64,000 nucleotides of DNA from NCBI GenBank assembly GCA_905178155.1, contig CAJINV010000004.1, positions 9,524,625 through 9,588,624 on the forward strand, given 5' to 3'. Below, one piece after another: positions 7,578-63,555 of the stretch. The notes beneath the pieces were generated by a model, which was not told the DNA's origin, ran no database searches, and was given only the letters and a program-made list of their open reading frames with translations. A program made the position numbers and the translations under genes. The DNA comes from Amoebophrya sp. A120. Taxonomy: Eukaryota > Protista > Dinoflagellata. Numbering within the stretch: position 1 is the first letter of the stretch; the number at the start of each line of letters is the position of its first letter.

Positions 7578-10500
7578 ATGAAACGGAAGGTCGAGACAAC
7601 CACGTGGCAGGACGTTTGTGACTTAGTGAAGCCCACCCAGTACAAACTGTCGGCGAAGCAGGAGCAGCAGATCCCGGCGCTGATCAAACCGTTGAAGCGG
7701 TTTTGGCGGTACATCCCACCAAGAGATCTCTACCCGAAGTCCTTTCTTGGCGAGGTGGAAAAGCGACACGTGGCGAAGTCCATCGTCCGGGCGTTCTGTC
7801 ACCACGTGTCCCACAAGGGGGAGCCGAGAATACGGGAGAACGAGCTGAGCGAAACCCTAGAGCGGTTCAACGTGTACAAGCTCCGCCCGAACTACCACCC
7901 CGGGCTGGTGAAGGAGCTGTTCGACGAAATTATCCACCGCCGGCCGATCGAGCTGCAGAAATTCCGCGACATCTCCGATCAGGAGGTCTACGACGCGATC
8001 TGCGACAAACGCGAGTGGGCCCCGGTGATCAACATCGTATGCTTCCCGGAGAAATCCGATAAAATGCAGCAGCCCTACGAGTTGATCGGAAGGACAAGTG
8101 TGATCGATGAGTGGCTGCTGAAACTTTACGACGACTTCCAGTCGATCGGCTTTTTCGGCGGCAACACCGAGGTGCCGAACATCTTCGGACACAGTAGCAC
8201 GAAGGAAAACTACAAGGTCCCGGGCTATTACCGGGCTTTCGGCGAGGAGTTGGTGCGATTCATGAAACGGTCCCCGGATTTTAGGAGCGAGGTCTTGTCG
8301 TTTCTGCAAAAACCCGGAGCAACTACTGGTGGATCTTCTACTTCAATTAACAAGAATAACGAAGATGTCGTCGAACAGATGCACGAGATCAAGTTCCACA
8401 ACCCGCGGAAGCTGTGGGTGTTTTCCCGGCGACCAAACGCGGATATTTGGCTGGACATGATGAAGCTGCTGGATCACAACCCGGTGAACCAGGAGGCGCA
8501 CAAGCGGAACGACCACTTTTTCAACGGGCATTTACTGGACATCCAGGGGGAACCCGTGCCGAAGCAGAACCACGCGAAGATGGACAACAAGGAGGTGACA
8601 CGGTCAAAAGTGTTTCAGAACGAAAGGTCCGACGCGTGGATCCAGAACAAACCGGCCATGGGGTTGCTCGGCGGGACCTATTTGCAGACCATGACGGGGC
8701 AGCTGGCGACCCTACCGGGCGTCGGGTTGACCCGGGATGTGTACCGCGAACCGATCGACGAGAAGATTTCCGATTCGCTGAAAGTTGTGGTCGAACCGCA
8801 GAACAGTATCCAGATCAAGGAAGTGAAGATAAAGCCCCTCGCAACCGTCCACTCCCTGCGGCCGACGGAGCAGTACCCGGGCGTCAATGCGATTGAGGAG
8901 GGAAGGTTAGAGACCGGACCGGAGGAGAAGCCGAAACCTTTGTCGGAACTGGAGCAATTAAGTCACCAGAACGCAAACTACGTAAACGAGACGATCGGAG
9001 CATCATCTTCCTCGTCTTCTAGTGCTGGTGGTCCGCAACAACTGCAGCAGAGCCGATCCGCGCAGGGTGGTCTCCGCTTCACCCTTGACGGGAGCAAAAG
9101 GACCTTTCGCCGCGCGATGGCGAAAACAGAGAGGGTCAGCTTCAACCGCAACCAGCTGCAACAGGTCTTAGTCAACACAGCCGCTATGACGGGGCACTAC
9201 GACCAGACACTGTCCACTTGGAGGAATAGGAAAACCACGACGAGCGTCAGTCCGGAGAAGAGCAAAAGTAGCGTTGGTGCAAATATTAACGGCGCAACGC
9301 TCTACTACGCGGAGCCGCCTGGTGGTAGTTTTGAAGAGGATAGCGATGCAGCACTTAATATGTTGCAACAAGAACCAGCGGACCAACATCAAATTGAGCC
9401 AGCACTGTTAATACAACATCAGCCCGGTGGAACATCCCAGAACTCGAGTCCGAGTTGGAGAAGCAAGTCTTCTGGCATAAAATACCCGCCAACCGTCGTT
9501 GCGGGTTCGATAAAAGGGCCAGATAATGTCGATCCGGAAGTCCGCGACCAGCTCTACGGGCCGATTCTGAACACCAACGACTCGGTGTGCCAGCCCGAGG
9601 ACAAAATTCCGCTTACCAACACCGGGGATAGCATTCCCGTGATCGGGTCCGGGGGGGTCAGACTCCTGCGGCCCGCGAAGTTCAGTCTCGCGCAAACGTT
9701 GTCCGAAGCATACAAGGGGACGATTCTAACCTCAAAGTCCATATGGGATTCTCAAATGTTACATTCTCAACTGTTACATGATTTGCCATGCAAAATCACC
9801 ATGAGCCACCAGACGATAAAGCTACCTCGCATGACAAATCCCCGAAGGGCTAAACAGCATCTAAATCTGTGCCGCATTTGTGATGCGAGAGATGCAAGCT
9901 TGCCCATTTCACGACTGTTGCGGCTCTTGCATCACAAATTCATGCAACAGTTGAGAGTGTAACGTTTGAGAACTTCATAGTCCAAGGCGATAACGTATGG
10001 GAAATGCGCGATCGAGCACCCGCCGGCCGGGAGCGGGAACTATCAAACAAAAAAAGTTCGTCGCGATCACTCATGCGCATTTTTGCAACACAAAATTGTT
10101 TGTCATGCGTAAAAATGCATCACAGCCAAACTTCATTAGGGATTTCCCTAGTGTTTCTGCAATACAAGGAAAATTTTTGACGCTAAGAAAATTTGTAATG
10201 CAAAACCTGCAAGTTAGTGACTGTGACAAACTTTTTTCTCTCCATAGGAACAGCAGTAGCAGTAGTAGCTCCATGCTGCAGCGACACGCGTACTCGACCC
10301 TGAATCTGAACGCGGTGCAACCGACTGCGAAGCAGATGTGCGTTCACACGTGGTACAATAATTTACCATGTGCAGGGGACAGCACCGTCACGCAAATCGG
10401 CGCGATGCCACTACATCTGGCGTCGGGGATTGATGCGAAGACGAAGGTATTCTTGATTGGATTTTGTCATGTAAGTACTATGGGACAGCATGTGCATATA

Positions 10501-13583: not shown

Positions 13584-15107
13584 ATGAAGAATCCCAACCT
13601 GCAGCCCTTCCGGCAAGTGCCGCGAAACGCCGCGCCGGCCTCACGGGTAGTGAAAACCCCACCACAAAACTTCAACCCGGCGGATATTCGGGTGGCGGTG
13701 CGAAAAGAGGTTGCTAAGGTATCTAACGTACTAGCTGTAATCTTCCCTTCATCGAGGAGTATAGTAGTTGTACCGATAATACCAAGATTGTTGGGATTGG
13801 CAGTTCTAAGTGCAGCGAAATTTTCAATGCATTGGTGGAGCAGTTCTTGATATAAGAAAAATAAATGAAAAAAAACACTCATCTCCCAGCCCGGTTTCTC
13901 CACGCGCAAAGCGCCGAAGTTCAACCCGGAGAAGGTCTCGCCCGGCGCGTTTTTTGTTCCTCTTCAAGCTCCGGATGCAAACGAAATCAAGCCCGGGCCG
14001 CGGAACCCACCGAAGTCCAAGTCAGACCCAGAATACATCGACCCAGAAGACGTGCTCGCGGCGATCAATGCGGACGGCAGTTACGCAGGCCACGAGGCAG
14101 GACGCTTGCAGAGAGAAAAGGAAGAGGCGGAAATGGAGGCAAAGAAGAAATATGCCGTGAAGATAAACAAAAGTATCGCAGTCGCATATTAAAACATGCA
14201 CTGCAAATGTGATGTTTATACCTGAGTCTGCATTTACAAACTCCATTTTTGTTGCTGAAAATTTTGTGATGTAATTTTGCCACTTTTTTTTACTTAATTA
14301 TGCGATAGAATAGGATACTTTTGCCATGCATAGGAAGGAGGCCATGGCCAAACTGGGAAAAATGGCGGTGCCTATGCCGGACTGGCCGCTGCACCCGCAA
14401 ACGGGGGAGAAGTTGGACGGGTATCCGTTCGTCCGAAAGTGGCTGGAAGACGAAATTCGCTCGAAGGATAAGCCGTACTATCCGAAAACAAGGCCAAACG
14501 AACCGTTCACCTTTTTCAACACGCTGGGGAGGAGAAACGGTATACGTTGATTTGTTGCGAACTTAATAAACTTATTGTGATCCTACTAGGTAGGGTTTCG
14601 CTCGTCGTCTTTTTCGTGCAATAATGTTGCTGCAGCTGCGGGTACAGACTTGACATTCGCTACATACTTTTGGAGACTTGTCATGCCACACAAAATAAAG
14701 CTACCGACTCTTTATTTTGTGTTTGTCAGGTAAATACTGCATCAAGGGCGTTCCGGACGGTAATTTCCCCTACCAAAAGGAAACGCACAGATCCGTAACT
14801 TACGAGCACGAGTACATTGCGGGGCTGGCGCGACGGAACGACTACAATTTGATCACCAACTATCGCAAGAAAAAACTGTTTCACTGTGAACTTGTGATGC
14901 AGAAGATGGAACACAGACCTATTTGTATTGCTACACTTGCAAGACATTGCATTTTCGAGCGTCTTTTCCCTTGGGAAGAGCGCATGGCAAATTTTCTGTG
15001 TCATGAGTACGGAACTTGTGATGCAGATTTTGCAAAATCACCACTGTGAAACAGTTTTTCGGTGGGATACCAACGATGGGTTACCGCCGCTGGACCAGGA
15101 TTACTGA
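13584..15107 (+). CDS. Hypothetical protein (multi-exon; start uncertain)
   Basis: Exon segments MKNPNLQPF..., ...EAEMEAKKK|EAMAKLGKM..., ...DYNLITN|DGLPPLDQDY* join in frame across the two elements. Confidence 0.6.
14151..14332. mobile_element. Introner, degenerate family A-like
   Basis: TATGCC...CAAAAGTATCG / GATACTTTTGCCATGCATA; diverged DR AGAAA/GGAAG; frame restored by removing element + 5 bp. Confidence 0.7.
14861..15069. mobile_element. Introner / non-canonical intron
   Basis: TATCGCAAGAAAAAACTGTTTCAC...GTGAAACAGTTTTTCGGTGGGATA; DR CCAAC. Confidence 0.85.
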
Positions 15108-16298: not shown

Positions 16299-18844
16299 AT
16301 GGCCTGGAAACTGAACCGTCCGCGCATCCCCTCGGACGATAGCAACAATAATTTTGAGGTGGATGGCACCGCACTACATCATCAGTCACCAGAACAGCGA
16401 CACCAGAGCACGGGCAATCATCTACAACCAGTAACGCGACAGCCGTCTTATGAACTGCAAAAGTATCGTATTCGTAGTATTGCAACACAAATTACCCCAG
16501 CATGACAAACGGAATCATGCTGATTTAGCTTGAAAATGAAATTTGTCTTGCATGACTGTGATTACTACGAGTACGATACTTTTGCACCGGATACGTCTAT
16601 CGCCAGCACGATGTACGCGTCCGGCTCAGGCGGCAACCTATCCAGGAAAATAAAACACCCATCAACATCCAATTTGTCATGCAAAACACGTATGAAATCC
16701 CGTGTTTGTCATGCGAAAAAAGGATGGGAATGGGTTTTTTTACTTTTTCTGTGGATAAAACCCGCCGACGTCCTCCACCTCCCTCGGAGGTTCGTCCCCG
16801 GCCCCTTCCACGCCCGAGCAATCCTTCATCCCCGGCTTCGGCGAGATGAGCGCCCAGTTTCACTCCGCGCTCGCGGCAGAGCGGCAACGGATGCTGATGA
16901 AGGGCATCGGGCCGGGTGGGCCAACTACAACATCTTCCTCCAGCACGAGTCCCTACAGAGTAGGGGGTTCATCTTCGCGCGGTACTAGATACGCGGGCGC
17001 GTCACTGCACTGTAGGTACTGTGGGCTGCCGCACACGGGAGATTTTCCGGTGACTCTGAACGGGAATCCTGTCGTGATCGACCAGAATCTGGACCCCGTG
17101 GTCACCTGCTGCCCTAACGCGAGATGTACAGTACATCATGTACAACTTCAACTTCTATTGGATAAAAATAAATTAGTACGAAGCTCTGCTCGTGTTGATG
17201 AAGACGAAAACTCGGACGAGGCGTTTATTTTCATACTGTTGCTGCTACAGCTTTTGTTTCGCAAAGCGCAAGTTTCTTGCTGCATAAGCAGCACGCATTC
17301 CATACATATGATGGCAACATGAAAAAAAAAATGAAGGTAAGAAACCGCTACCCAAGTGCATGATTTGCCAGCTTCCACTATCCACAGTAAATTTCCTGTA
17401 CACGTACAAATGCAGTCCCTGCATGACAAAACTTGCCTTCAATCCTAGTGTAGCATGACAAGTTGGACACTGCAAGTTAGCGAAATTTGTCATGCATTTT
17501 GTACATGTACAGGAAATTTACATTGCATATCCACTTAAGTGCGCGGTGAAGAAGAACGAGAACCTGATTCCGCTGGGCGACTACACCGTGTTCTGCATGA
17601 CGTGTCACCACGGAGGACACCTGAAATGCGTGCAAGCCTGGAAGGAGCAGGAGCTGAAGCGAATAGCGCGGGAGGAATTGGACGACGTGTTTGGGCATTT
17701 GGTGGACTTGCCTCTGGCAGAATTGCAGGAAAGGGTAAGGGAGAAGGAGAGGCAGGAACAAAGTGATGCACAAGCTGCAGCAGCAGCAGCAGAAGCTGCA
17801 GCTGCGTCCTCGTCAGCTTCCGCACCTCCTCCTTCCGCATCTACTTCCCCAGAAGAGAACGCGAAGAACACCGAAGCAGGGAACAAGGACCCCGGAGATG
17901 ATGATGCAGATCATGATCCGATTTGTCGGCCCGCTGGCGGTATGCATTGCAAAAGTATCGTATGCATTGCAAATTTCCTCAACATGAGAAATAAAATTTG
18001 TAATGTGGATGTACGATAAGAAAAAGATTTGTAATGCTGCAAGACTTGCATTTATACGAGTACGATACTTCTGCAGTTCATAGGCGGTCCCGTTCGCTCC
18101 GCTTCGAAACAGCCACTACCCCGTATGAAAGTGCACAACTCCCCCTCCCCCTCGTTTGTTTTGCAAAATTCCAAATCCACGCTTTGCCTGTTAGCACTGT
18201 TTGCATGACAGATTCCGAAATCCAAAACAGCACTACAATCCTCTAGGAATTTGTCATGCTGAAGCTGCATCTTTGCCAGCGCTTGTGTTTCTGTTCATGC
18301 AAGAACACAACGGGGGGTGGGGGAGTTGTGCACTCTCATACCCCGTCCTCGAAAGATACCGTGCTGCCCAGTGCCAGGGTGTGACTGCACTTTTTGCTTT
18401 GCGCCGATAGACGAGGACTCCTCGTCCGATGAAGAAGAGGAGGCGGGGGCTGGTGGGGCGGCCGAACAAGTGATAAACGAAAACGAGGAAGTAAGAACCA
18501 CCCCAGCGCGACGGGATTTTTATAACCCAGATGCTGGTCTTCAAGTTCAAGGTCATCTGCTAGGCCTACCTCTGTCGATCGACGCCATTGGGGAAGATGA
18601 ACCATCGACGCACACAGGAGAAAGAAATCCTGTCGGCCGGGATGGAGGAGGTCCTCGTGTGGAAATGCAACTGCAAGTGCAAGATATGGATAGCCCTGTA
18701 CTATTTCCAGGAGGTTTTGGTGGGAGTCCTAGCAACAACGTCGGTCTTCGAGGAACTACAGATCCTCGGGCGGAGTTTACGCCACTCTCCCTAGACGACG
18801 AGGAGTCAGAGTTTGCTCTGAACATAGAGGACGAGTCGTATTGA
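16299..18844 (+). CDS. MIOS/Sea4 (GATOR2)-like zinc-ribbon/RING protein, interrupted by 5 introners
   Basis: Reconstructed CRYC...CCPNARC...KPLPKCMICQLPL...FCMTCHHGGHLKCVQAW...CCPVPGCDC resembles the MIOS C-terminus; acidic tail. Confidence 0.6.
16449..16593. mobile_element. Introner, family A
   Basis: TATGAACTGCAAAAGTATCGTATTCGTAGT...ACTACGAGTACGATACTTTTGCACCGGATA; DR CGTCT. Confidence 0.9.
16639..16757. mobile_element. Introner / non-canonical intron
   Basis: TATCCAGGAAAATAAAACACCCAT...ATGGGTTTTTTTACTTTTTCTGTGGATA; DR CAACC/AAACC; frame restored. Confidence 0.8.
17379..17529. mobile_element. Introner / non-canonical intron
   Basis: TATCCACAGTAAATTTCCTGTACACGTACAAA...TTTGTACATGTACAGGAAATTTACATTGCATA; DR TCCAC; splits CQLP|LKC. 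Confidence 0.9.
17941..18082. mobile_element. Introner, family A
   Basis: TATGCATTGCAAAAGTATCGTA...TACGATACTTCTGCAGTTCATA; DR GGCGG. Confidence 0.9.
18124..18340. mobile_element. Introner, family B
   Basis: TATGAAAGTGCACAACTCCCCC...GGGGGAGTTGTGCACTCTCATA; DR CCCCG. Confidence 0.9.
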
Positions 18845-21643: not shown

Positions 21644-21705
21644 CTGTTATTGTTGAGAAGTAGTTTCTTTCTCTATCATTTTTCCCACAGAAGAGCAACC
21701 ACAAA

Positions 21706-22683
21706 ATGTCACGAAAGCAAGCCGGCAAGGAAGTCTCCAAGGACGAAAAGTACTTGGCTACTCTGTTGCATCATTCCCATTTGTTAGTTCCACAGTTTTT
21801 AATCGGTTTTTGCCATGCTGATGACCTGCAGGAGATGGAGAGCAACAGCAAGTCAATGCAAGTTGTGCAAGACAAGAAAAAGAAACTATATACAAGAACT
21901 CCCTCAGATCATGAAGACTCATCATGGGAAATAACTTAACATCAAAAACCCATTGTCAACAGGTTGGTGACGCTCCTGGACCGCGTCGCTGGCAACCTTC
22001 TCGAGGAGCGGCCGGAGGCCGGTGAGGCCGCGTATGACTTGCTCAAACGTTACAATCTCAAACGTTGCAATAGAGTCTGGAACTTGTGTTGCATGATGAG
22101 CATGACAGACTCGCACAGCGTTCCACTTTTTGCCATACAAATTTCGCCAGATTGTAGTGGGGTTCGGGGCTCCGGAACTTGTCATGCGCAGTCCTATGAG
22201 AGTTGGCTAGATCATGCACTCTTGCATCACAGATTTCCATATTCTATTGTAACGTTTGAGACTGTAACACCTGAGCGGGTTATACCGCGTGGAAGAACGT
22301 TCTGGAGACCCTGTACGAACAACACCCACTGTACGCGGTATCAGAGTGCACAACTCCCCTTTCCCCTCATTTGTCATGCAAAACCCCAAAACCAAGTCTA
22401 ATCCAGGCTTAGCACATTTGCATGACAGATTCCGGAAGCTGCTCAAAGCCAAACAGTACTACACTAGGCGCATGAAAATTTGTCATGCACAGGCTCCACT
22501 TCGTGTGCTGGTGTTTGTATTGCTGTCCATGCAATTATAGTACAAATGAGGGGGAGGGTGTGTTGTGCACTCTGATACGCGGGGCAAATGGAGCGGAAGC
22601 GGCTCTTGCGTCACCGCGAAAAGCTCGAGAAAACGCTCGTGTCGGCGAGAAAAGCCCTCACCACCGTCGGGGCAGGACAGTGA
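21706..22683 (+). CDS. Small protein with possible RIIa/Dpy-30-like docking motif
   Basis: MSRKQAGKEVSKDEK|...LVTLLDRVAGNLLEERPEAGEAA|WKNVLETLYEQHPLYA|GQMERKRLL...AGQ*; two GT-AG introns and two introners. Confidence 0.65.
22033..22284. mobile_element. Introner, family C
   Basis: TATGACTTGCTCAAACGTTACAATCTCAAACGTT...AACGTTTGAGACTGTAACACCTGAGCGGGTTATA; DR CCGCG. Confidence 0.9.
22339..22577. mobile_element. Introner, family B
   Basis: TATCAGAGTGCACAAC...GTTGTGCACTCTGATA; DR CGCGG. Confidence 0.9.
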
Positions 22684-26043: not shown

Positions 26044-29000
26044 ATGATGGGCCTCAGTGAGCCCGGTGGCGGCTCCAATAGCTCCACCGCGGACAAGTAC
26101 GACCCGATAGACACGTTGATGAAATGCAAGTCCACAATCCGGCAGCTCAACAGCGAATTAGAAAAGGAGAAAGCGGACCATGCGAAATTGAAGCGGGAGG
26201 TATCATTTGTAAAAACGTCCCCACCCCAGAGTCAAGATGGGAATTCTGCAACACAGATCCAGAAGTTTTGGGAGTGACGCATGACAAGTTTTTCTCTCTA
26301 CAGTAATGCGGGTTAGCAAGGGCAACCGCATCATAAAACCAGCCTGGTATCCTGTTTACAGCATCACAAAGTGCATTACACGATTGAAAATGTCTCTCAT
26401 TGGGATACGCATTACAAGCATTCCTGTAATTGTAATTCTGCCTGACAACTCTGAGGTGGGGACGTTTTTACACAGGATAGGAGGCTACCATCGTCGGCAA
26501 GGAGCTCGTGGAATTGAAGGGAAAGGTGGCCACGTTGGAAAACGAGAAAGAAAAATGGCGAGGGACGTACTTATTTGATTTCTCGTGCATGTCATGCTTT
26601 ATTTTCATATGCGTATCATCATCTACATCTTCCATATTCGTGCTGTGTGTGTCCATACAGGAATGTAGTTGGCTTTGTCATGCATACTCACGAAAACCGA
26701 AACCGTGTCAGGTACACCGAGCTTGAAAAGGTAAAAAACGAGCTGCAAGTCGCGAAACGCGAGTTGGCTGACACGAGGAAACAGGCGGCTGCAAATGCAC
26801 AGGGACTAGGTGGTGTGTCCTCACCCGGGGCCGGCGGCGGAGATCTGTTAAAGAAATACCAGGCGTCACAGGAAAGGGTACTGCTTACTAGTACTAGTAC
26901 TGAAACATCATGCAACTTCTCCGAAATAACGCATGCGGATCGCGCAAACAGTCTGGATAGATAAATGTCCCATCATGCAGCTACGGGAAAGTGCAAATTA
27001 ACACGCGGCAAACTAGTAATAGAACGTACACAACCGCCCAACTACCAGGTGTCCCAGCTGGAAGCGCAGAAGCAAACTTTGGAGGAGCTGTATTAAAAGA
27101 AAAAATGCGCCCACGCCGGATGCTTCAAAAATTTGTGATGCAAAGTTTCCAAATGAAAACTTTTTGTCTTGCATGAAAGGACTCTGAATCTTTCCGATGC
27201 AGAATCTAAGCGAGTAAGGCGTCTTTTACATGACAGGCTCGGCTGCTGCTGGGCTCTTACGCAACACAAGTTTTAGCTTTCCGCATTGTGATGCTGATAT
27301 ATGCAAGACAGGGAATGTTTCTAGTGGAAAGGTTTGCAAGACAAACTTGCCAAATTATGTGGTAGGGGCATGTTTTATTGTAATAAGCTGAAGGACCGGC
27401 TTTTGGAGGACGTAAAATACTTGGAGGATCGCAGTGCGCAGTACGATATCCTGTGCAAAAGTATCGTACTCGTATTGCAATCATGCATTACAAGTTTTTT
27501 CCTTAGGGTAAATCCGCATTACAAATGTCATTTCTCATGCTGAGAAATTTGTAATGCATTTATACGAATACGATACTTTTGCAGTTCATATACGAACTCA
27601 CCGTAAACCCCATCGTGAATCGGCAAAAGCAGGCAATATTGCAGCTCGAAGAGAGAATACAACAGTTAGAAGAGCACTGCCATCAAGTGGAGGGGAGACG
27701 TATTGATTTATGCTGTTGAGCTAGTATCGCTTTCGTTTTTACATCGGGAAGTTTACAAAGCATGAGCAAGCTCCTACTACTTGTTTATGTTTCCGCCCCG
27801 AATTATATCAAACAGTCCAACACGAGCGCGAAACACTTCGTGATTACTACGAGCAAGAGATTTTAGACCTCCGCGAAGACTACGAGCACCGCAAGCAGAA
27901 ACTCCAGCTGGAACACGATGACCACAAGCAAAACCTCGAGGAGGAAAAGCAGCGGAAGCACAAGGAGTGCGAGGAGCAGGTGCTTGCCGTCGTATCAAAT
28001 GCAAAAATGTTTCGGCCTGGAAAAGTCGGGGTTTGTCATGTACATTTTGCATGACCCGTGACGTCTGTGATGCAAACCCTAGCATCACAGATTTTTCAAG
28101 AGCTTCTTGATGCTTACCACGCATGAGAAACGCCCTCTCCGCGTGCCAAGAACTGGATTTCTCTTGCTGCTCATGCAACACAGCTATTTTTAGAATCCGC
28201 AGACAGCATTACAAGTTCCACTCTACTTCCAGACCCAGCCATTTTTGCATTTGATACGTCGAGCGGTTGTACGAGAAGGCGCGGGAGGAGTATGCATTGC
28301 AAAAGCACTTCACTAGCAGAAATCGCATGACAAATTCGCTCAGCATGAGAACTGGAATTTGTAATGCGGATTTACCTTCAGAATAAGACTTGTGATGCAT
28401 CAAAAACGAGATTAGTGCTAGTGCGGTACTTTTGCAACGCATAGAGAGCACGGCAAGCTGAAAGAGGAGCACCACGACAGCCACGCGGAGAAGGACCGGC
28501 ACATAGCGGATTTGGAGAACAAACATCTAAACGAAAAGCACGAGTTGCATAAGGAGAAGGAGTCCATAAAAAGCGACCTGCTCAACGCCGAGCAGAAACT
28601 GCAGCAGGCCAACGAAGCGCTGTCCATCCGCACCAAGCTGCACGACGCGAAGCACGAGGAATCGGTGCGATTGTCGCAGCACGTGGAGCATTTGGAGGGA
28701 AAGCACGAGGAGAAGGTGAATGCGATCACGTGCTTGCAAGGGGAGAAGAAGGAATTGAACAAGCGGATTGAGGTACGTATAGCACTGGTAGGTGGAGGTG
28801 CGTGTTGATCTTGATGAAATTTTTGATCGAAGAACAGAGATCTTTTCATTTGATTCGATACGCTGTTCTTACGTCTGCGAGGAACAGCGTTAGAATCAAT
28901 TCTGCTACCTCTCTACATCACAGCTCTTGGAGCGTTTGAACGAGAAGCACGAGCGCAGTAGTAAGACGGTGGTCAGGCAATTGGAAGCGGAGGTGCTCCA

Positions 29001-37395: not shown

Positions 37396-37532
37396 GACAA
37401 TGACATCAAGGACATCGACATGCTGTACTAGTTGCAGGAGAAAATAAGACGAGCTAGCACAGTTTGTTTTTTTTTCGCGCCGTCGAAGCTCTTCTTCATT
37501 CTGCGGGCCGTGTAGCGGAAACGAAAATAAAA

Positions 37533-41680: not shown

Positions 41681-44600
41681 ATGGTGCGGCGCTTCGTCTT
41701 CGGCGTGCTGACCGCGAGCATTTGCGGTCGAGTGGTCGACGCGAAGTGGCTTTTCGACTACCTCAGCGATGAGGAAGTGGGGAGCATTGCCAACAGTACA
41801 GACGATGTAAAGACAGATGCGGTGCACAGTGTTGACAATGAAGCTTTTTATTATGCAAGCTGCGCATGATCCATACGAAAACAAAAACAAAATCAAAATG
41901 CAAATACTATACCCCAGGTCTCCCGAACATCGACATCGCCTCCCAGCAGCCGGACGTCGATGCTGAGGTGGATGACTGGGCGCCCGGAAAATCAGTCGAC
42001 GATCCGCACCCTATCTTCCTCACACCCGACCTCAGCAGCATCGTCACCACCACAGCACCTGTACTACAACCCGCTGCGCAACAACCGGCCACCACCACCA
42101 CCGCCCCCTCGCTGGAGGAAGAGGAGAACTTAGGCCCCGCGGCCGCGAAAGCAAAGGCCCTCGAGCGGATGAAAAACAAGAGGGAAAAACCGCAGATTCA
42201 GTGTGACCTAGCGACCGAGGTGATCTTGTCTCTCGGGAACGCGCGCTTGACGGAGGCTGTGATGCGAGACAGCCTGGGCAGCGAAGATCCGTGCGTCCTG
42301 GAAACCATTCGCGCCGGGCGGGTGCAGCAAATATCGGTACCTAGGAGCCTGCGGTTCCAGGTTGGGATGCTGGGAAGCAACTCGACAGCTGAAGTCGGGA
42401 ACAGCAGCTCCGGATTGAGCCTGAATAGCAGCATCGCGTTAATGTTTCTGCAGGAGGTGGGAGGAGAAGATCAAGTTCAAGACGAGGATCACGACCAAGC
42501 GCAATCTGCATCTGCGTTTCCTTTCCAGGACCCGAATAAGGTGAAACCCTTGCAGCATAAGCCCGCCGAGACAAAACCCACGCCCGAAAAGCCTACTGCG
42601 AAAGGGCCGGAGAACCAGCCGGCGTTTGCCAGGACCATTCCCGTCGGGGGGCCCGCGGCTCGGTTCCGGACCAGACTGCCGTTTCAACAGGTGAGGGTGA
42701 TTTCGATTTGCTTTTGCGAGTAGGAAACTAAATCATGTTGTCGTTGTCCACTATTTGCGGTTGCCCGATAATAGACCTGTTTTCGTTTTCCTCCACGTAC
42801 TTATAATCTTCTACAACTATCACTAGTATGTCAAAGACCCAAACTTCTATCAGGTCCTGAACGCGTTCTGGCTAAATTCCAATCCTTTCGGCCAGACCAC
42901 GGACAGTGTGTGTGCCATCTACCCGTCCAGCCGCGAGCAGGTGAAAATAGCGAAGCAAACGACAGAGATGGTCCGCCAGGTTTTCGAAGAAGACGCCAGA
43001 ACGCCTTCGCAGCTGCGGTTTCTTCTGCCCGGTGGCGAGGAGAATAACGTGAACGCCATGCTGCCCGCGGAACGCGAGCAGGCGAAAAATGCGGCGTTGG
43101 AGGAGCAAATGGTGTCAGCACTGGCGAAATCGAAAATCAGTAGTACTAGCAAGATGACAAGCTCTAGTACAGCAACAGCAGGGATGAAAACAGCTACATC
43201 AACAAACAAATTCGATCCAGCGAAGCCGTACACGCAGCAGGATTTAAAAAAAGTCCTGCACAACGTCGCGGACAAGTCGGGTGACGCCTCGGTGAAGCTG
43301 ATACGCATTGCAAAAGTATCGCACTAGTATAAATTGCATTACAAATTGCGCCAAGAACAAAATTGGAATTTGTAATGCTGATTCAGGTTGGGAAAAATAT
43401 TCGTCATGCTTTAGTGCAATTTATACGAGTGCGATAGCTTTTGCACAGCATAGCTGAAAAACGGGAACAAAAACGCGATATCCACGAAGGAGGGTATGAA
43501 GGAGTACGATAAGGAGCGAAAGGAGAAAGCTTTCTACGAGGCGGGGCTGACCCCCACCGGGGCATCGACAGTTTCGCCCCCTAGTACTTCCGCGACGGAT
43601 GTTGGGATAAAAGTTGGAGGCGCAGCTGCAGCTTCTGATCCACTTCTGGATTATTTCAACACGCCGGGGGGAGGATCAAGATCAACTTCATCTTCTGGTT
43701 ATCCTGTGCAAAAGTATCGTACTCGTTGTAGTAATCGCAGTTATGCATTAGAAATCTAGTTGGTTAGGTAAATCCGCATTACAAATTTAATTTGTAATGC
43801 TGAGCCAATTTGTATTGCGATTTGTCCTAGTGCGAAACTTTTGCAGTGCATACTGGTACGATCCCTAGATCCGCTCCTCCTCTCGGCTACAATCTAATGA
43901 CGGCCTCGGTGCAGGACGGTTTCAGCTACGACCCCCCGATATGCATTGCAAAAGTATCGCACTAGTATAACTAGCATCACAAATTCACTCAGCATTAGAA
44001 ATGGAATTTGTAATGTGGATTCCACCAAAGAAAGGGATTTGTAATGCACGACAGCGATTAGTACGAGTACGATACTTTTGCACAGGATACCTGACTTTGG
44101 TTTTCACCGAAGCACCTCTGCAAGAGCAAGACTTCCGCGGGCAAAGTATGGGACAACTCTCAAGCGTTACATTCTCGACTGTTACATGAATTTGCCACGT
44201 AAAATTGGCAGCTTCGCAGGACAAGTTCTCGACGCGCTAGATAGCACTTTAATCTACTCCAAATTCATGTAACAGTTGAGAATGTAACACTTGAGAACTC
44301 CATACAAACGGCGACGGACTACACGAAATCGATGCAAATGGTGCGGTTGGTGCATTCGCGGGGAAAGATCACGACAAGTCTGTGGAACGAGGAGAACATC
44401 CGGAAATTTCTATCAGAAGGAAAAATCCCCCCTCCCTATATCGAAAACGATGCTTGTGATGCTGTATTGGAGTACACAAATCAGATTTGTCTTGCAGTAG
44501 AGGACTGCAGGACCATGCCACGCCATGCCAATGTAGAGAGGTCTTGGCCTAGGCACTTAGCATGAGGAACGGCTATGCTGTAGGCCCAACAGCATTACAA

Positions 44601-47375
44601 ACCATCTGCGTAATGGGTCGGAGCCTATGCCGTTGCTTTCTTGCAAGACAGACGCGATTTGTGGTCACAAATCCGCATCGCAAATTCCCTGAGGCGTACC
44701 TTTTCAATATGGGGATGGGAGATTTTTCCTTCCGATAATTTCAGAATTTGCTGACCGGCACGACGAAGATCGCCCCGCCGATCCCGGTGGGCACCGCAAC
44801 GAAAAATTACATGGGTGTGGACGACGACGATGTAGCAGTTCATGCTGCGGAAAATAAAGACAAGGTCCCAGCATCAAAACCGAAAACAAGCTTGAACCCG
44901 ATCAGCTTGCTGTCCATGGCTATCAAATGTAAAAATGTCTGGGTCTGGAAGATTCCAAGATTTGTCATGCAGTTTGTCCAAGCTCCACCAAGTCTGGAAC
45001 GCAGGGCCTAGCATCACAGGTTCTGCAGCCCCTTGGTGATGCCCATTGTGCATGAGAAATGCCCTCTCAGCATGGCGAGAAATGGGGACCTTTTGCAAGC
45101 CATGCAACACAGATTTTTGTATGATCCGCAACACGCATCACAAGTTCGCACTCTTCCAGACCCAGACATTTTTGCATTTGATAATCGCGCTGCAACATCA
45201 AAAGTCGGGGCGGACCCCCGGGAGAAGAAGTACAGCTACATCTAGCAGAACGAATATCAAAGCGTCTTCTTTCATCTCAACAGCCACCACGTCGTTCGCC
45301 GTTGCACCACGAGCAGGAACAACATCAAAGCGGACGGCTGCAGAGAGCAGCGTAGCAACATCATTCCTGCAGATAGGTGAAGATGTGGTCGACGATCACA
45401 AAATGATGATGAACATGCTGGATAGGAACAGTGAGAAGAACGACCTCGCTGTGCTGCACCAGGAAAGGCACCATGATGGTCACGCTCACCACCACACCCA
45501 CAAGCATCTGCACGATGGTCAACACCGGAACGAAAAACAAAAAGAGCACCATCACCACCACCACCATCAGAGCCATCATCACCACAAGGATCCCTTGGGT
45601 CTGGTCGAGGCTGCAACTTCAGCCTCGTCTAGAATTACTCCGGCTCCTGTGGAGGAACAGCGAAAAGAAAGGCATGCGAACTACAAGCACAAAAGCTCCT
45701 TCGGGAAGGAGAAGACAAATCTTCGTCATCTCTTCGAGAGCGAGACGAGTACCAACCGGCTGAAGACGCACCACGGTACTTCTAATAAGAACGTCAGCTT
45801 GAAAATGATGAAAACGAAGAGTCCGGCAGGACGACAGTCACACGACCGAAATAGTTTTCAGTACTTGCAACTCTTCTCCGACAAAAGACCTTCCCCGGCA
45901 GGCGGCGTGGGGGCATCTCGTGGGGGCCAAAACGATGCAAATTTTGCCATCGGCAAACTTCGGCAGCCATCGTCCTCGATAATATCCGCGTGGTATCGGC
46001 ACGCGCACGGGAAAGGGGATGGAGCGGATGGTGAAGCGGGCCCGGAAAAATCGCGAGAGCAACTACAGCAGCTAGAGTTGCAAACTGCACCCCCTTCCTC
46101 ACAACAACATGGGCCGCGGCTCACATCTTCAACTACAGAATTGCTGGAGCGGGGGACGACGAGTGCAGCTCAGGCAGCGAAACTTCATAGGGAGCGAAAG
46201 ATGATGCAGACGGAGAAAAACGACAATGTGCAGCTGCAGAAGAACGAGCAAACTCATCTGCAAATACCGGCAACCACCGCCGGAAAAGAAGCCGAGCACG
46301 TGGCTCAGGCCGCGGGGGTGGTAGCTGCGGCGCAACACAAAACTGCACAAACAGCCGAAACCGACGAGGCCACAGCCGGTGGATCATCCGGAAGTACTAG
46401 TAGTGTCGTTAACCAAAGATCTCCCGAGGGGGCCGCGATCTCTGCCGCGACGTCTAGTGCGTATGCGTCTTCCGGTGCAGGATCGACTGCTGGAGGGAAA
46501 ACGGAGAAACAGGACCCCTCCGTTTTCGATGACTCAGAAGTTGCTGCAGCGATCAAAGAAGCGCAAGTCGGAGGTCAAGCGACTACTACAGCAGGGCCTG
46601 TTTCTGCGGACGGAGTTGCCAGAGCGAAGAACAAGGAGGAGGACTTGCGGGGAAAGCATGAGAGGCAAACCTGGGGTAATAAAACGTTCAGCATATAATT
46701 GCATGTTTGAGATTGTCGTGATGTTGCGAGAAGTCCTGCGAGCCTGAGATGTGCTGCAGTTGATTTTTTGGGAAAAATGCACGTGCTACTAGTAGTACGC
46801 TCCTTCTTCTAGAGTTGTCTAAATGAGCAATCACACAAAAAAACACACCTCAGCGTCCGAGTGGGTCCCTCTCATCGCCGGTATCGCGGTGCTCGTCGAG
46901 ATTGTCGCGCTGCTCTGCTTATGAACTGCAAAAGTATCGGACTCGTATAAATGCATTGCGAATTTTCTTAGCATGAGAAATAGAATTTGTAATGCTGATT
47001 TGCCTTGACAAAGGAATTTGTAATGCAAGACCTGCATTTATACGAGTGCGATACTTTTGCGCAGGATACTGCTGCGAAACGAATTTAGACACCTACGACC
47101 GCTCCCACTACTACCACAACTACTACTCCGACACTGATCGGTCTTCGCAAATCTCCACGCACTTAGCCGCGTCCTCCGCGAGAGGACGGTCTTCTTGCGC
47201 CAGCGGAACCGGGACCTCGCAGGATGAGGGGCCGGCGACGAGTATTTCCGCAACCCGGCAAGAGTGGACCACCAGGGTGCTGCTGCAGCATCAACTACAG
47301 GGAGGAACTACGCGGGAGAGCAATTTTCACAATCTGTACGAAGAGACCCGGAAAGCGAGCAGTAAATCGAAGTGA
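41681..47375 (+). CDS. Large secreted/membrane protein: signal peptide, His-rich tract, C-terminal TM (7 introners)
   Basis: MVRRFVFGVLTASICGRVVDA; HHHHHHHQSHHHH tract ~45470-45590; WVPLIAGIAVLVEIVALLC|C. Single-gene interpretation is inferred. Confidence 0.65.
43302..43452. mobile_element. Introner, family A
   Basis: TACGCATTGCAAAAGTATCGCAC...GTGCGATAGCTTTTGCACAGCATA; DR GCTGA. Confidence 0.88.
43700..43852. mobile_element. Introner, family A (reverse orientation)
   Basis: TATCCTGTGCAAAAG...CTTTTGCAGTGCATA; DR CTGGT. Confidence 0.9.
43940..44089. mobile_element. Introner, family A
   Basis: TATGCATTGCAAAAGTATCG...CGATACTTTTGCACAGGATA; DR CCCGA/CCTGA. Confidence 0.88.
44147..44304. mobile_element. 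Introner, family C
   Basis: TATGGGACAACTCTCAAGCGTTACATTCTC...GAGAATGTAACACTTGAGAACTCCATA; DR CAAAG/CAAAC. Confidence 0.85.
44411..44737. mobile_element. Introner, family F
   Basis: TATCAGAAGGAAAAATCCCC...GGGAGATTTTTCCTTCCGATA; DR ATTTC; homologous to 38900-39221. Confidence 0.9.
44921..45183. mobile_element. Introner, family E
   Basis: TATCAAATGTAAAAATGTCTGGGTCTGGAAGA...TCTTCCAGACCCAGACATTTTTGCATTTGATA; DR ATGGC/ATCGC. Confidence 0.88.
46920..47068. mobile_element. Introner, family A
   Basis: TATGAACTGCAAAAGTATCG...CGATACTTTTGCGCAGGATA; DR CTGCT. Confidence 0.9.
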
Positions 47376-48142: not shown

Positions 48143-49203
48143 ATGAGCGCTTCCTATGAACTGCAAAAGTATCGTACTCGTATAAATGCATTGCAAATTT
48201 TCTCAGCATGAGGATTAAAATTTCTAATGCGGATTCACCGTAGGAAAAAAATTTGTCATGCATATTTGCAATTAAGTACTACGAGCGCAATACTTTTACA
48301 CAGGATACTTCCGCTCCTCCACCAATGTCAGCAGCGGGGACCGCCGCGGCAGCGAGGGCGGGATCCGCGTCTTTGGTCGAATCAGCGGTGGGGACTGCAA
48401 AGACCGTCCTGGATCGCTCAGTCACGGAAGTGAGAAATTTCGTGGAGCAGAATCCGAGCCAGATTCGAGCGACGGTATTGCATAGGTGGGTGAGGAAAAC
48501 CTTGTGTTTTTCGCGATAAGTTACAAAATCATTAGCTTCGGCGGGCGGAGATAGAGACACAGACGCTAAGCAGAAGCAAAAAAACTGACCAACCAATATA
48601 TAAAACAGGTTTTCCTGATGGGCCTGGCCCAGGCGGTATATTGCGGCCTTGGCATCGTGAACATTTTCGCGCTCTCTTTTACCCCTGTGGAATACATGGT
48701 AAACCTGTATCTTTGCCTCTTCGCTGTCGTCACACTGATTCTGGAGGGGAAGCCGGAGTGGCCGGGCGTTTCCGGGGTGCAAGAGAAAATTTTCTTCCAA
48801 GCGCACTTTTTGTCCACGGTGCACGGCAGGGCGGGCTTCTACATGTTCCAAGGCACGTTTGGGATGGCCAGGTGAGAGATTTAGATTGAAGAAGCTTCTA
48901 GTGCCGGAAAGAGATGTGAGTACTTTTTAGGTTTGCTGTTTATTCATGTCGTTCTGCTCGGCCGGGGTTCTACTCCTCGGGTTGTAAATTTAGAAGATCT
49001 GATTTTCATCCAAAAATTCCAGATACGACTCCGATTTCCTGATGTTCGTCTTCGGTTTAGGCTTCTTCGCAATCGGCGCCCTAGTGCTCGCGCAGCAATA
49101 CAGAAACCGGGGGCAGACCGCAAATCTCCCAAGCGAAAACTTGCTGAGGGATTACCACGGGCAGGGCGGAAACCTGCCGCCTCCGACGGTGAACGCTGTG
49201 TGA
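48143..49203 (+). CDS. COPI-associated (Tvp15-like) membrane protein
   Basis: Hydrophobic helices; NLYLCLFAVVTLILE and FLSTVHGRAGFYMFQG resemble the COPI_assoc family. One introner and two GT-AG introns. Confidence 0.7.
48155..48307. mobile_element. Introner, family A
   Basis: TATGAACTGCAAAAGTAT...ATACTTTTACACAGGATA; DR CTTCC; 12 bp after the ATG. Confidence 0.9.
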
Positions 49204-53344: not shown

Positions 53345-54648
53345 ATGGTCCGCTTTCTGTTTCTTGTCGCGATGCCTGAGGAGGGCAAACACCTCGAGAA
53401 GGTGTTTGACTTGACAAAGGACGACGATACTGCGGCTGGCAATCCCTTCATCGATCTGTACTCCAACACGAAGTTTTGTTGTAGCGGGAGTAAAAACGAC
53501 GAGGAGGATAAGAAAACCACAAAACGACAAATTTTCATGGTTGTTCCGAAGCGGGACAAGGTCCACAACTGCCCCTCGATCTCCTCTGAGTCCGCCGCCG
53601 TCTGCGCGTTCTCAGCACTGAACCTCCTGGTTCCCATTTTCGGCGCGTTTGACTTGGTGGTGTCTGCGGGGACTTGTGGCGGGATACAGCAGCCGTTGGA
53701 CGTTTTCTTGGACGAGGAACAAGGTACAAGCACAACAACAGCGACGACGACGACAACAACGGCGATGCAGCAGGGGGACGTGTTTGTCGCGAAACAGATC
53801 CGGTATTTGAACCGCTTTATTCCCTTTGACGAATACAAGCAGTATCTGCATGGCAGCGGGTACAAATTGGTGGATCCGAAAAGGGTCAAAACCGCTATCC
53901 TCGCTGATAAGAGGAACAAAGACACACTTCGTGTTTTCGAGGGGAACGTCGCGACATCCAACACGTTTGTCACGGACGATTCCATTCCGCTGCAAGAAAA
54001 AGCTCACGTCTGCGAAATGGAAGCGGCGGCACAGGCGAGGATCTGCTGTTTGATGAACGACGTTCCGTTCACCGCGGTGAAAATCGTTTCTGACGTGGAT
54101 TTGAGCAGTGCAAAGCAGAAGCAGTATCGCACCCGCACAAGTTGGAGTCACGCTTGTTGACAGATCTGCTTTTTTTATTTGCATCGGCATGACAAAAAAA
54201 TTTTTAATTGTGATGCAGTAATTCCTACTGGTGCGGTGCTTTAGCTTTTGCAATGCATAAGAGTCCGTCGAAGGGATGACGAAGGAGGAACGGGTATCCT
54301 CAGTGAAAACGTCCTCGCCCCAGAGTTCTCGAGAAGCACTCTCTGGTGCAGTTTCGGGATTTGTCATGATGCTCGAATCAGGATCAGGTGGTCGATTTGT
54401 GATGCGGTTGCACTAGCTACACAGGACTACACTTCTACGAGCCCGAACTTGTCATGCGCGGCACCCAAAACTTGTGGACCTGTGTAGCAGATTCTGGTTG
54501 GTTCTGCTTCGACGTGACTCGGGGGTGGGGAAATTTTCGCTTAGGATAATGGGGGCATGCGTTTTTGGCTTTTTTGGACCACGGAGTGGAAAATCTGGGG
54601 AACGCGTGCAGGGGGCTCGTGGAAAACTGGAATGGTATTGTGGAGTGA
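53345..54648 (+). CDS. 5'-methylthioadenosine/S-adenosylhomocysteine nucleosidase (PNP_UDP_1 family)
   Basis: LVAMPEEG, DLVVSAGTCGGI, GDVFV, ATSNTFV, CEMEAAA, VKIVSD. C-terminus EERGHAFLAFLDHG...GIVE* recovered after removing elements. Confidence 0.85.
54100..54259. mobile_element. Decayed introner (left end eroded; start approximate)
   Basis: Right end CTTTTGCAATGCATA; internal GCATGACAA and TTGTGATGC; no clear left TAT or DR. Confidence 0.55.
54295..54548. mobile_element. Introner, family G
   Basis: TATCCTCAGTGAAAACGTCCTCGCCCC...GGGGTGGGGAAATTTTCGCTTAGGATA; DR ACGGG/ATGGG. Confidence 0.85.
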
Positions 54649-56182: not shown

Positions 56183-57262
56183 ATTCGTGAAAGTCGCCTT
56201 TAGAGATGACATTTACAACGCTTTCGCTGTCGTACTCGATCTTCTCGCCGCTCATTTTGAAATCTTCACCTGCTTGTCAATTGCAGGATTGTATGATTAT
56301 TGTCTGAGCTATTTCTCCAAGAGGACCACGAGCACGACCACGCTGGGACAGGAGGAAGTTTTGATTACCCAAACGCAGAGTCAAATTTATTTTTTAGCCC
56401 TATCATCCAAGGCCATGCATTGGGATATCTCGTGTACCTGTACAATGAAGTCGTGTATTTTTTTTCTCAAACGGACGGCCATGCAGGTGCTTATCGCCAT
56501 GTAAAAGCTACTTCTTATCGCCATGTAAAAATCCCGTCAGGGTCAGCGCTACAACACTAGTAAAAAGTCATGAAACTATCAGGACTGATTTTTGGTCACA
56601 GGCAAAATATTCGACCAGTAGGCTCCTGCGCCGTCTTTTCCTCATGAAAGCGGTGGGAGATGCGGGTGAGGTTAGTATTGATGGGTCGAGTAGGTAGTGA
56701 AGACAAAAAACGGCTTTTGTGAAGATTGCGCCCTTCCCGGGGATGAAGCAAGTGAGCTGCTTGCGCTATGATGGGAGTCAATTAAACACAACATATCGCG
56801 TCATGTATTATTTGATTGTGGATGTGCGATCCTCATCCTTTTGTCGTATGAAAAACAAAAAGTATTGGTATTCATGTGCCGTTCTTGCACCGTGACCTAG
56901 ATCAAGTTCGAAATCCAGATCCTCTACTAGCATAAAGAAAATGCAACCGCTAGAGAAAGCCAGTAGCCCCAGAAGATTTTTCGATCCAGATACGATGCAA
57001 GGTTGGGTCTTGCAACATGTGAACAAAAACGCTTTTTTCCAGCAAATTCTTTGCATCTAGTAAAGCATGAACATCCGTCTACAAACAGTCACAGTCTACA
57101 TCTACAACTTCAACTCGCCCGCATAATTGCTCTATTTGAACACTTTTTTCGAGGATCGTAAACAGTACTACGCATACTACATCCAAAAACGACACTGTAA
57201 CTGCAAGCAACTTTTCTACAACAATTTTACTGGTCCAGTTATCTTTGTTCCTCGATCTTGAC

Positions 57263-59234
57263 CATGACGTCCCTCTCCCTACGTAAGGTTTTCGCCGTTC
57301 TGTCCTCTCTGCACTTTGTTGCGCAGCACTTCTGCATGATGACTTCTACTGGTGTGCTCACGCACGTGCACGGGCTGCAGCTGGCCGGCAAAAAGCATCG
57401 GTCCCGTTCCGCCGGCCCTACCGTCGGAGCGCGTGAACTACCGCTGCTGGCGGGAACAAACGGAAATGCAGGAACGACCGCTGCTGCTGCTGCTGCAAGT
57501 AGTGCAGCTTCTAGCTCCGCTGCGGTTCCACCTGCCACCGCGACTCGTCGCCTTGCTCGAGAGGTTTCTATTGCTACTGCCCAGGCTGCTACCGGTTCTC
57601 CCCGTGGTCCTGCTGCTTCTACTGGTCCAGCGCCTCGTCCTGCTGAACGTCATGTTGATCTCGGTGCAGCTGATGCTGCTCGTCCAGCTGATGCTCCACC
57701 TCGTCCGCGAGTTCCTGTCCCCGGCCCGCCTCGTCCCCACCGCCTGCCCGTCGTAGGCCTAATGGCCCATTGTGTAGGCGGCTGCTGCTGTTTCGACACA
57801 ACGGCACTAGTGGGTGCAAACAGGGACACCATCGACCGGCGCTTTTTGGCGGCCGAGGAGGCAGGAAAGGACTGTCGTGTTGGAGCGGCCTGCTGTGTTG
57901 GTTTTGGCTATGCATTGCAAATAGTATGTCTGGGTCGGGAAGACGGGTGCGGTGCAACACTGTGACGCAGCACACGACAGAAAACTGTCTTGCATGATCA
58001 CCAAAAGCAGCCGTCCACTTTTGGACAAGTTGAGAAGAAGTCTGTCACGCAGGATAGCGATTTAATATGTAGGCATGATGGTGATCACGAACATCATAGA
58101 ATTAAAAACCCCACAGAATTCCGATTCATGCTAGGTCCTGCACGCCAGACCATATGGGGCGGGGGCCGGGGGGGCAGTGAAAACCTGCATGACAAACCTA
58201 GCAATCTTCCAGACCCAAACATGTTTGCTCCTGATATAGGCGCTTCGGTGGCCGCCGGTGCCGGCATTGGGTACCTTTGTGCTCCTAGTGCGACTGGCTG
58301 TGTGACAGGGGGAGGAATGGCAGCAATACTTCCTGGAGGTGTTTTCGGAGGTACGGGGGCGGCGTTGCTCCAAAGCGGGTGCAGCGAGTGGGGTACGGCG
58401 AATTCGCGGTTCGAGGAACCAACTCCACAGCAAGTTATCAAATGCACAAATGTCCGGGTCTGGAAGGTTGGAACTTGTGATGCTAACTTTGGACTCTAAA
58501 AAAATCTGTATTGCATGACCAGCAAGAGGAGGCTTGTTTGTGCTACGCGGGGCGGGCGTTTGTCATGCGGAGTAGGCATCAGGATTCAGGAAGCCCTCTA
58601 AAAATCTGCGATGCTAGGTCGTGCATTACAGACATCCTGGGTCATGCAAAACATGCATGACAAACAAGACCCACGCGTGGGGACAGGGTCCCCACGCTGG
58701 GGCCTTGTGCCCGCCCCTAGTGGCGCTAGTGGGGGAAGGGTGTTCGCCATCGGGGCGGACAGCGTCCGCCCCTCGCCTCACACCAGGCGCGCGCATAGTG
58801 ACTTAGTGCGCGAAACGCTAGTGGGGGAGGGGTGTTCGCCATCGGGGCGGACAGCGTCCGCCCCTCGCCTCACACCAGGCGCGCGCATAGTGACTTAGTG
58901 CGCGAAACGCTAGTGGGGGAAGGGCCCTCACCTGTCGCGGCCACCTGTCGCGCCCACCTGTGATGGCCACCTGTCGCGGTCACCTGTCGCGGTCACCTGT
59001 CGCGGTCACCTGTCGCGGTCACCTGTCGAGGTCACCTGTCGAGGTCACCTGTCGAGGTCACCTGTCGCGGTCACCTGTCAAGGTCACCTGTCGCCGGGGG
59101 TATGCGTTACCAGAACCCGGAAGTCAAGCAATGTAAATATTAATCTCAGAATCTTCCAGACCCAGACATATTTGCATTTGATACAAGTACTTATGGCGCT
59201 AGGTGGGCACGAAGGGCTCTTCCCGGATTATTGA
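57263..59234 (+). CDS. Signal-peptide paralogue with Cys/Gly-rich hydrophobic C-terminus (2 introners)
   Basis: N-terminus homologous to the 55490 gene. Reconstructed ...ACCVGFG|ASVAAGAGIGYLC...EPTPQQV|LMALGGHEGLFPDY*. Confidence 0.7.
57909..58236. mobile_element. Introner, family E-like with family A-like tip
   Basis: TATGCATTGCAAATAGTATGTCTGGGTCGGGAAG...CTTCCAGACCCAAACATGTTTGCTCCTGATA; DR TTGGC/TAGGC. Confidence 0.85.
58436..59183. mobile_element. Introner, family E, carrying a ~480-bp internal insertion
   Basis: TATCAAATGCACAAATGTCCGGGTCTGGAAG...CTTCCAGACCCAGACATATTTGCATTTGATA; DR CAAGT. Confidence 0.88.
58724..59094. repeat. 92-bp tandem repeat (~2.2 copies) followed by a 13-bp minisatellite (CACCTGTCGCGGT, ~13 copies)
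   Basis: Units start at 58724, 58816 and 58908; minisatellite ~58929-59094. Confidence 0.9.
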
Positions 59235-63455: not shown

Positions 63456-63555
63456 CTTGCTCTATTGGGGGGGGGATATCGCAAGGTGTACTCGTGTTCC
63501 GTGTTCTTGGGGTGCATGCAAGAAGTGGCTTACTGTATACGGAGGCTCATAACTC

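Follow-up and report, generated by a model that had tools for sequence, protein, structure and literature searches.

A 64,000-nucleotide window of the Amoebophrya sp. A120 genome (contig CAJINV010000004.1 of assembly GCA_905178155.1, positions 9,524,625 to 9,588,624 of the forward strand) carries plus-strand genes, including one of the GT47 family, whose coding exons are interrupted by short elements with terminal inverted repeats (TIRs), TAT and ATA at their ends, and a 5-bp direct repeat (DR) on either side. An earlier note on this DNA had counted about 37 such elements and had proposed that they are non-GT-AG introns removed along with one copy of the repeat. Our curated list, which takes in imperfect DRs and two decayed copies (14151 and 54102; elements are named by their first position), likewise holds 37, lying between 9742 and 59183, measuring 119-748 bp each and 8,090 bp in sum. 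All of them fall within plus-strand open frames once removed.

Element ends, families and direct repeats

A strict scan (TAT/TAC..ATA/GTA ends, a perfect 5-bp DR and an ungapped TIR score of at least 10) gave 26 matches in the window, against a mean of 0.1 and a maximum of 1 in 30 Markov-shuffled windows; a scan with relaxed termini was too noisy to use. The ends TAT/TAC..ATA are found in 36 of the 37 curated elements, with TAC starts at 32176 and 43302 only, the sole exception being 54102, which begins with TGA and ends with ATA. The DR is perfect in 27 elements and imperfect in 10. As the earlier note had remarked, many DRs are devoid of canonical splice dinucleotides: 12 of the 37 elements offer neither GT nor AG, and GT/GC..AG can be had in any register at all for just three (17941, 26201 and 57909).

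BLAST clustering, which covered 36 of the elements, resolved five multi-copy clusters (14, 5, 2, 2 and 2 copies, with 69-89% identity within clusters) and 11 singletons at the threshold used. The termini of 9742, 22033 and 44147 look alike by eye and would make a sixth family, so that of the at least six families earlier proposed five stand by BLAST and one by visual comparison of termini. One terminal consensus, about TATSMWNTGYAAAA as derived from related loci, is common to all families, and the inverted repeat of the window elements reads TAT, seven variable bases and then at least three A. An asymmetric type of terminus occurs in both orientations (11 vs 13). Being short and non-coding, with TIRs and a target-site duplication (TSD) of fixed length, the elements display the traits of miniature inverted-repeat transposable elements (MITEs). 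Folding predicts a terminal stem, with TAT/ATA paired at p>0.5 in 19-20 of 35 elements and the inner stem core paired in 28-31 of 35; the hairpin bringing the element ends together is thus a predicted fold, as in the euglenid nonconventional introns. Rfam gave 0 matches in the window.

The coding-only location of the 37 elements suggests exon-biased insertion or retention. The intergenic parts of the window yielded no short TAT..ATA element that was complete and carried a 5-bp repeat. Separately, the density of the motif GCATNACR and its complement is 5.4 per kb in the elements vs 0-0.1 per kb in exons, and that of GT[GAC]ATG is 3.9 per kb in a set of nine canonical introns; possible readings of these motifs are a transposase-binding signal, a splicing signal, or the descent of canonical introns from old elements.

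To these we can add a larger sample from one other assembly with the same families, in which the terminal pattern retrieved 147 stretches (144 loci, 552 kb); the elements there are defined by their termini alone and known from DNA. An exact 5-bp DR flanks 268 of 335 such elements and a further 46 match at four of five positions, while exact repeats of 3, 4, 6, 7 and 8 bp number 6, 1, 0, 1 and 1, respectively. Elements were oriented by a codon model, in which neighbours agree in 102 of 103 cases, and 196 oriented perfect DRs were left after low-margin and imperfect ones had been dropped. The composition of these 196 equals that of phase-matched exon sequence, which, together with the uniform length, bears out the earlier description of the 5-bp repeat as arbitrary in sequence. 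GT/GC-AG could be assembled in any register in 10 of the 196, the exon base just downstream (DR position 5) shows no preference for purines among them, and the imperfect repeats of the related loci show no drift toward GT or AG. The imperfect repeats of L025 gave no match at 500-2000 amino acids when compared with annotated proteins, and a search with an L025 representative returned only the contig's own open reading frame (ORF) call, two proteins of Amoebophrya A25 and one short unnamed protein. At another locus of the related assembly (L026, 134-1119), elements are packed with exons of just ~25 nt between them.

Removal of the elements from transcripts

The transcript evidence comes from four contig sets of one sample, the RNA status of which is a tool's guess. 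In the segment 43853-59330 these RNA-like contigs skip five GT-AG introns, and, among the joints listed, they also skip ten of ten elements by exactly the element plus 5 nt, nine of them in all four runs and 57909 in three of the four. The elements with such direct joints are 43940..44089 (DR CCCGA/CCTGA, joint 43937>44093), 44147..44304 (CAAAG/CAAAC, 44141>44305, both=4), 44411..44737 (ATTTC, 44404>44737), 44921..45183 (ATGGC/ATCGC, 44918>45187), 46920..47068 (CTGCT, 46914>47069), 48155..48307 (CTTCC, 48149>48308), the decayed 54102..54259 (GGATT/AGAGT, 54100>54264, both=1), 54295..54548 (ACGGG/ATGGG, 54291>54551), 57909..58236 (TTGGC/TAGGC, 57905>58239), and 58436..59183, a 748-bp element with internal tandem repeats (CAAGT, 58430>59184); all lie on the plus strand, as do those given below.

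Eleven more elements fit removal by exact length arithmetic on the record coordinates of one run (X1). Between 31259 and 33947, removal of seven elements, namely 31264..31525 (TACTA), 31673..31824 (ACCGA), 31987..32131 (GGTAC/AATAC), 32176..32458 (AACAC), 32925..33075 (GACGA), 33308..33556 (GGAAG) and 33605..33754 (CACCG), leaves 318 nt over, which equals two 159-nt GT-AG introns that we placed at 32697-32855 and 33791-33949. The two elements of the GT47 gene, 38678..38826 (GAGTC) and 38900..39221 (TTTGT), yield 68 nt observed for 68 predicted after removal, and the stretch 43302-44304, with 43302..43452 (GCTGA) and 43700..43852 (CTGGT), yields 377 nt observed for 377 predicted if the 4,409-nt record is taken as one contig. 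RNA support thus extends to 21 of the 37 elements, 10 by direct joints and 11 by arithmetic. In a DNA-like run (X5), reads pass from exons into the elements at a unique depth of 42-46, with a pile-up inside the elements, among the joints listed; therefore, the genome keeps them. Two raw-read RNA runs identified by their species label (X8 and X9) contained partial matches to elements only and left the exons uncovered.

The reading frames tell the same story. Deletion of each element plus 5 nt, along with the GT-AG introns, yields continuous plus-strand ORFs of 1,131, 1,063 and 1,268 codons, which span 7, 2 and 7 elements, respectively, and retention of the element introduces a stop or a frameshift in 36 of 36 cases tested. 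In the GT47 gene, the junctions YLEES|ECRVSDP and STCL|Y give an insertion-free alignment to homologues, which are proteins lacking any insert at these points, and a GT47 exon is 100% identical over 299 amino acids to an Amoebophrya sp. A120 protein (P0001). A codon-score test of the frame preferred element plus 5 nt in 23 of 36 cases; this test is circular and weak, as its model was trained on the spliced window, and ten of its 13 'misses' carry RNA support for the +5 form. At the level of cDNA contigs, the elements with RNA support are removed as non-GT-AG introns with exactly one DR. The earlier note had described the restored frames and GT47 motifs and had put forward mapping of RNA without a GT-AG constraint as a check; at these elements the transcript contigs skip exactly the element and 5 nt, rather than retaining it.

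The other elements were identified by the strict scan and curation: 9742..9979 (GTCCA), 10041..10246 (GGAAC), 14861..15069 (CCAAC), 16449..16593 (CGTCT; also by BLAST, as a member of the 14-copy family), 17379..17529 (TCCAC), which lies in the motif CQLP|LKC, 17941..18082 (GGCGG), 18124..18340 (CCCCG), 22033..22284 (CCGCG), 22339..22577 (CGCGG), 26201..26479 (GGAGG), 27091..27385 (AGCTG), 27447..27590 (TACGA) and 27993..28256 (CGTCG; also by BLAST, in the 5-copy family). Curation added the decayed 14151..14332 (AGAAA/GGAAG), 16639..16757 (CAACC/AAACC) and 28291..28443 (AGGAG/GAGAG). Among the host genes, two adjacent paralogues at 55300-57400 have duplicated upstream regions, and only the second bears elements (57909 and 58436). 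The acceptors of canonical introns (e.g. 46676-46853, 50357-50508 and 50698-50991) are preceded by A/C-rich tracts and not by polypyrimidine tracts.

The proposed cut register and candidate machinery of removal

Only imperfect DRs inform k, the number of upstream DR bases retained in the mRNA. The six informative junctions place k at 3 or more (43940 and 44921), 4 or less (44147), 4 or more (54102) and 2 or more (54295 and 57909), and k=4 is the sole value fitting all six. From these few bounding junctions we infer that there is likely to be a single fixed 1+4 register, N|TAT...ATA-NNNN|, wherein the intron comprises the last DR base, TAT...ATA and the first four DR bases; the predicted intron of every element given here accordingly runs from its start-1 to its end+4. 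Under k=4, the +2 position is T in 36 of 36 elements and +3 is A in 35 of 36, and the 37th element also has a TAT start. Given this register, the elements share the T+2/A+3 preference of the canonical donors, which in the window have A at +3 in 7 of 9 cases. GT/GC..AG, the ends of canonical U2-type introns, occur under the 1+4 register in 1 of the 37 elements (26201, with GT..AG). Hybrid ends (GT..NN or NN..AG) are common and spliced, as at 44147, 54295, 54102 (intron TT..AG) and 58436. In the related loci, intron phases under k=4 are 89/56/51, a phase-0 excess (p=0.0015). The published splice boundaries are in line with a T at +2: in the portions of PMC7789003 available to us, the top nine non-canonical splice pairs of A120 all have T at +2 and the nine non-canonical pairs of A25 all start with TT (Table S4).

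Regarding the machinery, excerpts of PMC7789003 report most spliceosomal proteins and the U2, U4, U5 and U6 RNAs from A120, with U1 undetected, and those of PMC13326754 describe a standard spliceosome that requires G+1, AG and a +1/-1 pair, as well as one in Fritillaria borealis that shows that it can be retuned to non-GT/AG introns. As the register, one of six, restores T+2/A+3, as hybrids are spliced, and as Fritillaria offers a precedent, we favor, at a probability of roughly 0.55, the reading that the elements are MITEs whose RNA-level removal keeps to a fixed 1+4 register and is likely the work of a relaxed U2/U5/U6 spliceosome. U6 and Prp8 read U+2, and such a relaxed spliceosome would read U+2/A+3 and the paired element ends in place of G+1 and AG. 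Given that 1+4 = 5, only elements duplicating 5 bp would leave without trace, and their exonic spread at random targets and in either orientation would therefore be explained. This offers a simple reason for one 5-bp-duplicating class of transposons colonizing exons freely. The register would further reveal a machinery that ignores the G+1/AG pair, which is central to normal splicing, yet keeps T+2/A+3.

A number of observations weigh against this proposal. The value k=4 is pinned by a single upper bound (44147) and a single lower bound (54102, which is decayed and had its start set by eye), and all the RNA runs represent one sample in the form of contigs. No placement rule is apparent for the boundaries in Table S4 as excerpted, and PMC7789003 calls the splice position variable there. 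Intron phases in the window under k=4 are just 15/12/10. The 196 related-locus DRs bear no mark of selection, be it on G at +1 (56 observed vs 64 expected), on AG at -2/-1 (18 vs 18) or on +1/-1 pairing (p=0.48), and the machine would therefore have to be strongly modified or a different one. Terminal variants show no clear asymmetry (12 at the 5' end vs 9 at the 3' end among 318), the predicted stem covers +2 to +6 and would presumably have to open for pairing with U6, no branch point was identified in the elements, and no transposase was found.

A bolder version, to which we give somewhat less than an even chance, posits that A120 follows a single, strict splicing code of a third kind, N|TA(T)...ATA-NNNN|. 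Its executor, either a spliceosome independent of U1 or a new enzyme, would find the ends by the terminal hairpin of the transposon and be blind to G+1/AG. The 1+4 geometry would match the 5 bp duplicated by a single clade of integrase-like TA..TA transposons and neutralize every exonic insertion of that clade. Were this true, tens of thousands of copies could have become introns, A25 would apply the same geometry to its TT..NN introns with a preference for T..A targets, and Euglena (3+5) would have arrived by convergence at a spacer sum equal to the TSD length.

The same elements and the same 1+4 register could alternatively be served by a dedicated non-spliceosomal endonuclease and ligase measuring from the base of the hairpin, in the manner of Euglena. 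We regard this as a less probable but serious contender, because of the lack of selection at +1 and AG, the predicted stem and the spacer offset of Euglena, whose 3' spacer likewise exceeds the 5' one by 2-3 nt and for whose introns the excerpted text of PMC12501133 favors non-spliceosomal factors. The bases at +1, -1 and -2 are of no consequence across the 196 DRs, most elements are predicted to form the terminal stem (its inner core in 28-31 of 35), and symmetric ends work both ways round, as in the one asymmetric type (11 vs 13). Nevertheless, out of six possible registers only the one in use reproduces the T+2/A+3 of GTA donors, hybrid ends are common here (44147, 54295, 54102 and 58436) and rare in Euglena, and the decayed 54102 is still removed exactly; furthermore, A25, with a repeat starting in TTA, also has T at +2 in the data excerpted from PMC7789003. 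The dedicated excision pathway of the earlier note is therefore one candidate of two, since the T+2/A+3 register points at least as much to a relaxed spliceosome.

A real removal whose cut position varies inside the repeat, the situation drawn by Farhat et al., with the fit to k=4 being due to chance, is improbable in our estimate. The informative junctions do number just six and perfect repeats hide the register, but a k uniform over 0-5 would give agreement with k=4 at every one of them with a probability of about 0.03, no alternative letters appear at the six junctions at a 10% share, and T+2 is found in all the top classes of Table S4 as excerpted from PMC7789003. A hairpin with a direct repeat is a classic setting for template switching, and the evidence is all from cDNA-derived contigs whose RNA status is a tool's guess, but that the joined forms are switches of the reverse transcriptase or products of DNA-level excision, with no RNA splicing, is very unlikely: the exact joins at 54102, 43940 and 44921 share no more than 1-2 bases, which makes switching less likely, each of the four runs has the joined form as its unbranched long contig, 36 of 36 frames are broken by retention, the joined proteins align with homologues, and the elements are kept in the DNA-like run among the joints listed.

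The proposed register bears on a question open since 2021, namely how Amoebophrya excises introns that lack GT-AG, which make up >60% of its total. One register for all of them would convert an ambiguous class into a precise code, fix the boundaries of gene models and specify where the excised RNA begins and ends, thereby making lariat vs circle testable with defined primers.

Probable transposon origin and relation to known systems

The elements would be non-autonomous DNA transposons of the MITE type, with the 5-bp repeat as the insertion footprint. Their TA..TA ends suggest an integrase-like DDE transposase, and the common terminus of ~13 bp makes plausible the earlier proposal of one mobilizing enzyme class, although no transposase was found. 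Neither an empty insertion site in DNA nor a cognate autonomous partner of the elements was found in the loci covered. The long elements with the same termini and a transposase, which the earlier note had named as a target for search, were not recognized in the related loci: elements of 631, 972 and 1031 bp held no transposase-like ORF among their longest frames, read by eye, and one of 4,208 bp looks composite. The Copia-like integrase and gag of the window had no tblastn match in the related loci, and viral contigs gave 0 matches for two terminal patterns.

Other mobile elements of the window were also noted. The region 60203-63980 on the minus strand combines a Gag-like ORF (62061-63431) with no Pfam match and a Copia-like ORF with Pol_BBD, rve and SH3 domains (60206-61603) with no match to reverse transcriptase or RNase H, and has a 48-bp direct repeat at 60203-60250 and 63933-63980. 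It recalls family 38 of A120, a TIR/Copia-like family in Gozashti 2025 (PMC12130899, as excerpted), and no TAT-type terminus was found beside it. A 1,370-bp foldback element at 91-1460 has TAT..ATA ends, long TIRs and a DR of 8 bp, not 5 bp, and possibly belongs to a different superfamily. A 600-bp intergenic element at 21045-21644 has 33-bp non-TAT TIRs.

Among described transposons, IS3EU/GingerRoot elements are alike in combining TA..TA termini with TIRs and use an integrase-like DDE transposase according to the parts of PMC10045372 available to us. TA..TA termini are found in 36 of the 37 window elements, but membership in this group fails on one feature, its TSD being usually 6 bp, as against 5 bp here, with 0 of 335 related-assembly elements having 6 bp.

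As the window is from Amoebophrya sp. A120 itself, its elements are the published A120 introner elements, and the class was already known, as the earlier note had supposed. Excerpts of Farhat 2021 (PMC7789003) describe A120 inverted repeats in which TAT is followed by seven variable bases and then three As, direct repeats at the exon/intron boundary that measure 3-5 nt, with one 5-bp example (Fig. S19 legend), and RNA-seq support for non-GT-AG removal; no transposase is reported from A120 in them. Those of Gozashti 2025 (PMC12130899) place most families among TIR DNA elements without a known superfamily and describe one TIR family carrying Copia-like ORFs; across the 32 rows covered, out of 58 for A120 families, the automated TSD calls range over 2-6. 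The passages at hand from these A120 papers call the splice position variable or unknown, with 'no clear splicing signature'. The window elements agree with the published ones in strain and location in A120 genes, the TAT inverted repeat, a DR in the range of 3-5 nt including the 5-bp example, RNA-supported removal without GT-AG, MITE-like build and repeated copies. They differ in that the DR is uniformly 5 bp, as opposed to the published 3-5 nt and TSDs of 2-6, and in showing one register. We did not find a fixed register stated in the Amoebophrya literature searched, the published figures of which may show part of the pattern; nor did we find there the uniform 5-bp duplication or its sequence neutrality, and to that extent these three features are new.

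Beyond Amoebophrya, the closest likeness is to two other systems. Euglenid nonconventional introns, as described in the excerpted PMC12501133 (Nomura et al. 2025) and the review PMC11282704, also have a TIR hairpin near their ends, arbitrary terminal dinucleotides and TSD-like repeats, and, in the former source, fixed spacers that are longer at the 3' end than at the 5' end. Their own features include spacers of 3 + 5/6, a CAG/CTG motif, a purine past the 3' site, circular products and few hybrids in these accounts, whereas the A120 elements have 1 + 4 spacers, TAT/ATA, no exon-base preference and frequent hybrids. In place of the euglenid code N3-CDG...CHG-N5-6|R, the stem of the A120 elements runs from +2 to -5 with TAT/ATA, and there is no downstream purine bias. 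Fritillaria borealis is alike in that transposon-derived introns escape GT/AG in most of the introns of a genome; in the excerpted account (PMC13326754), its ends stay restricted, with many able to form isosteric first/last pairs, U1 is present and U2AF is duplicated. In A120, by contrast, the +1 and -1/-2 positions are random and, in the excerpts of PMC7789003, U1 is undetected.

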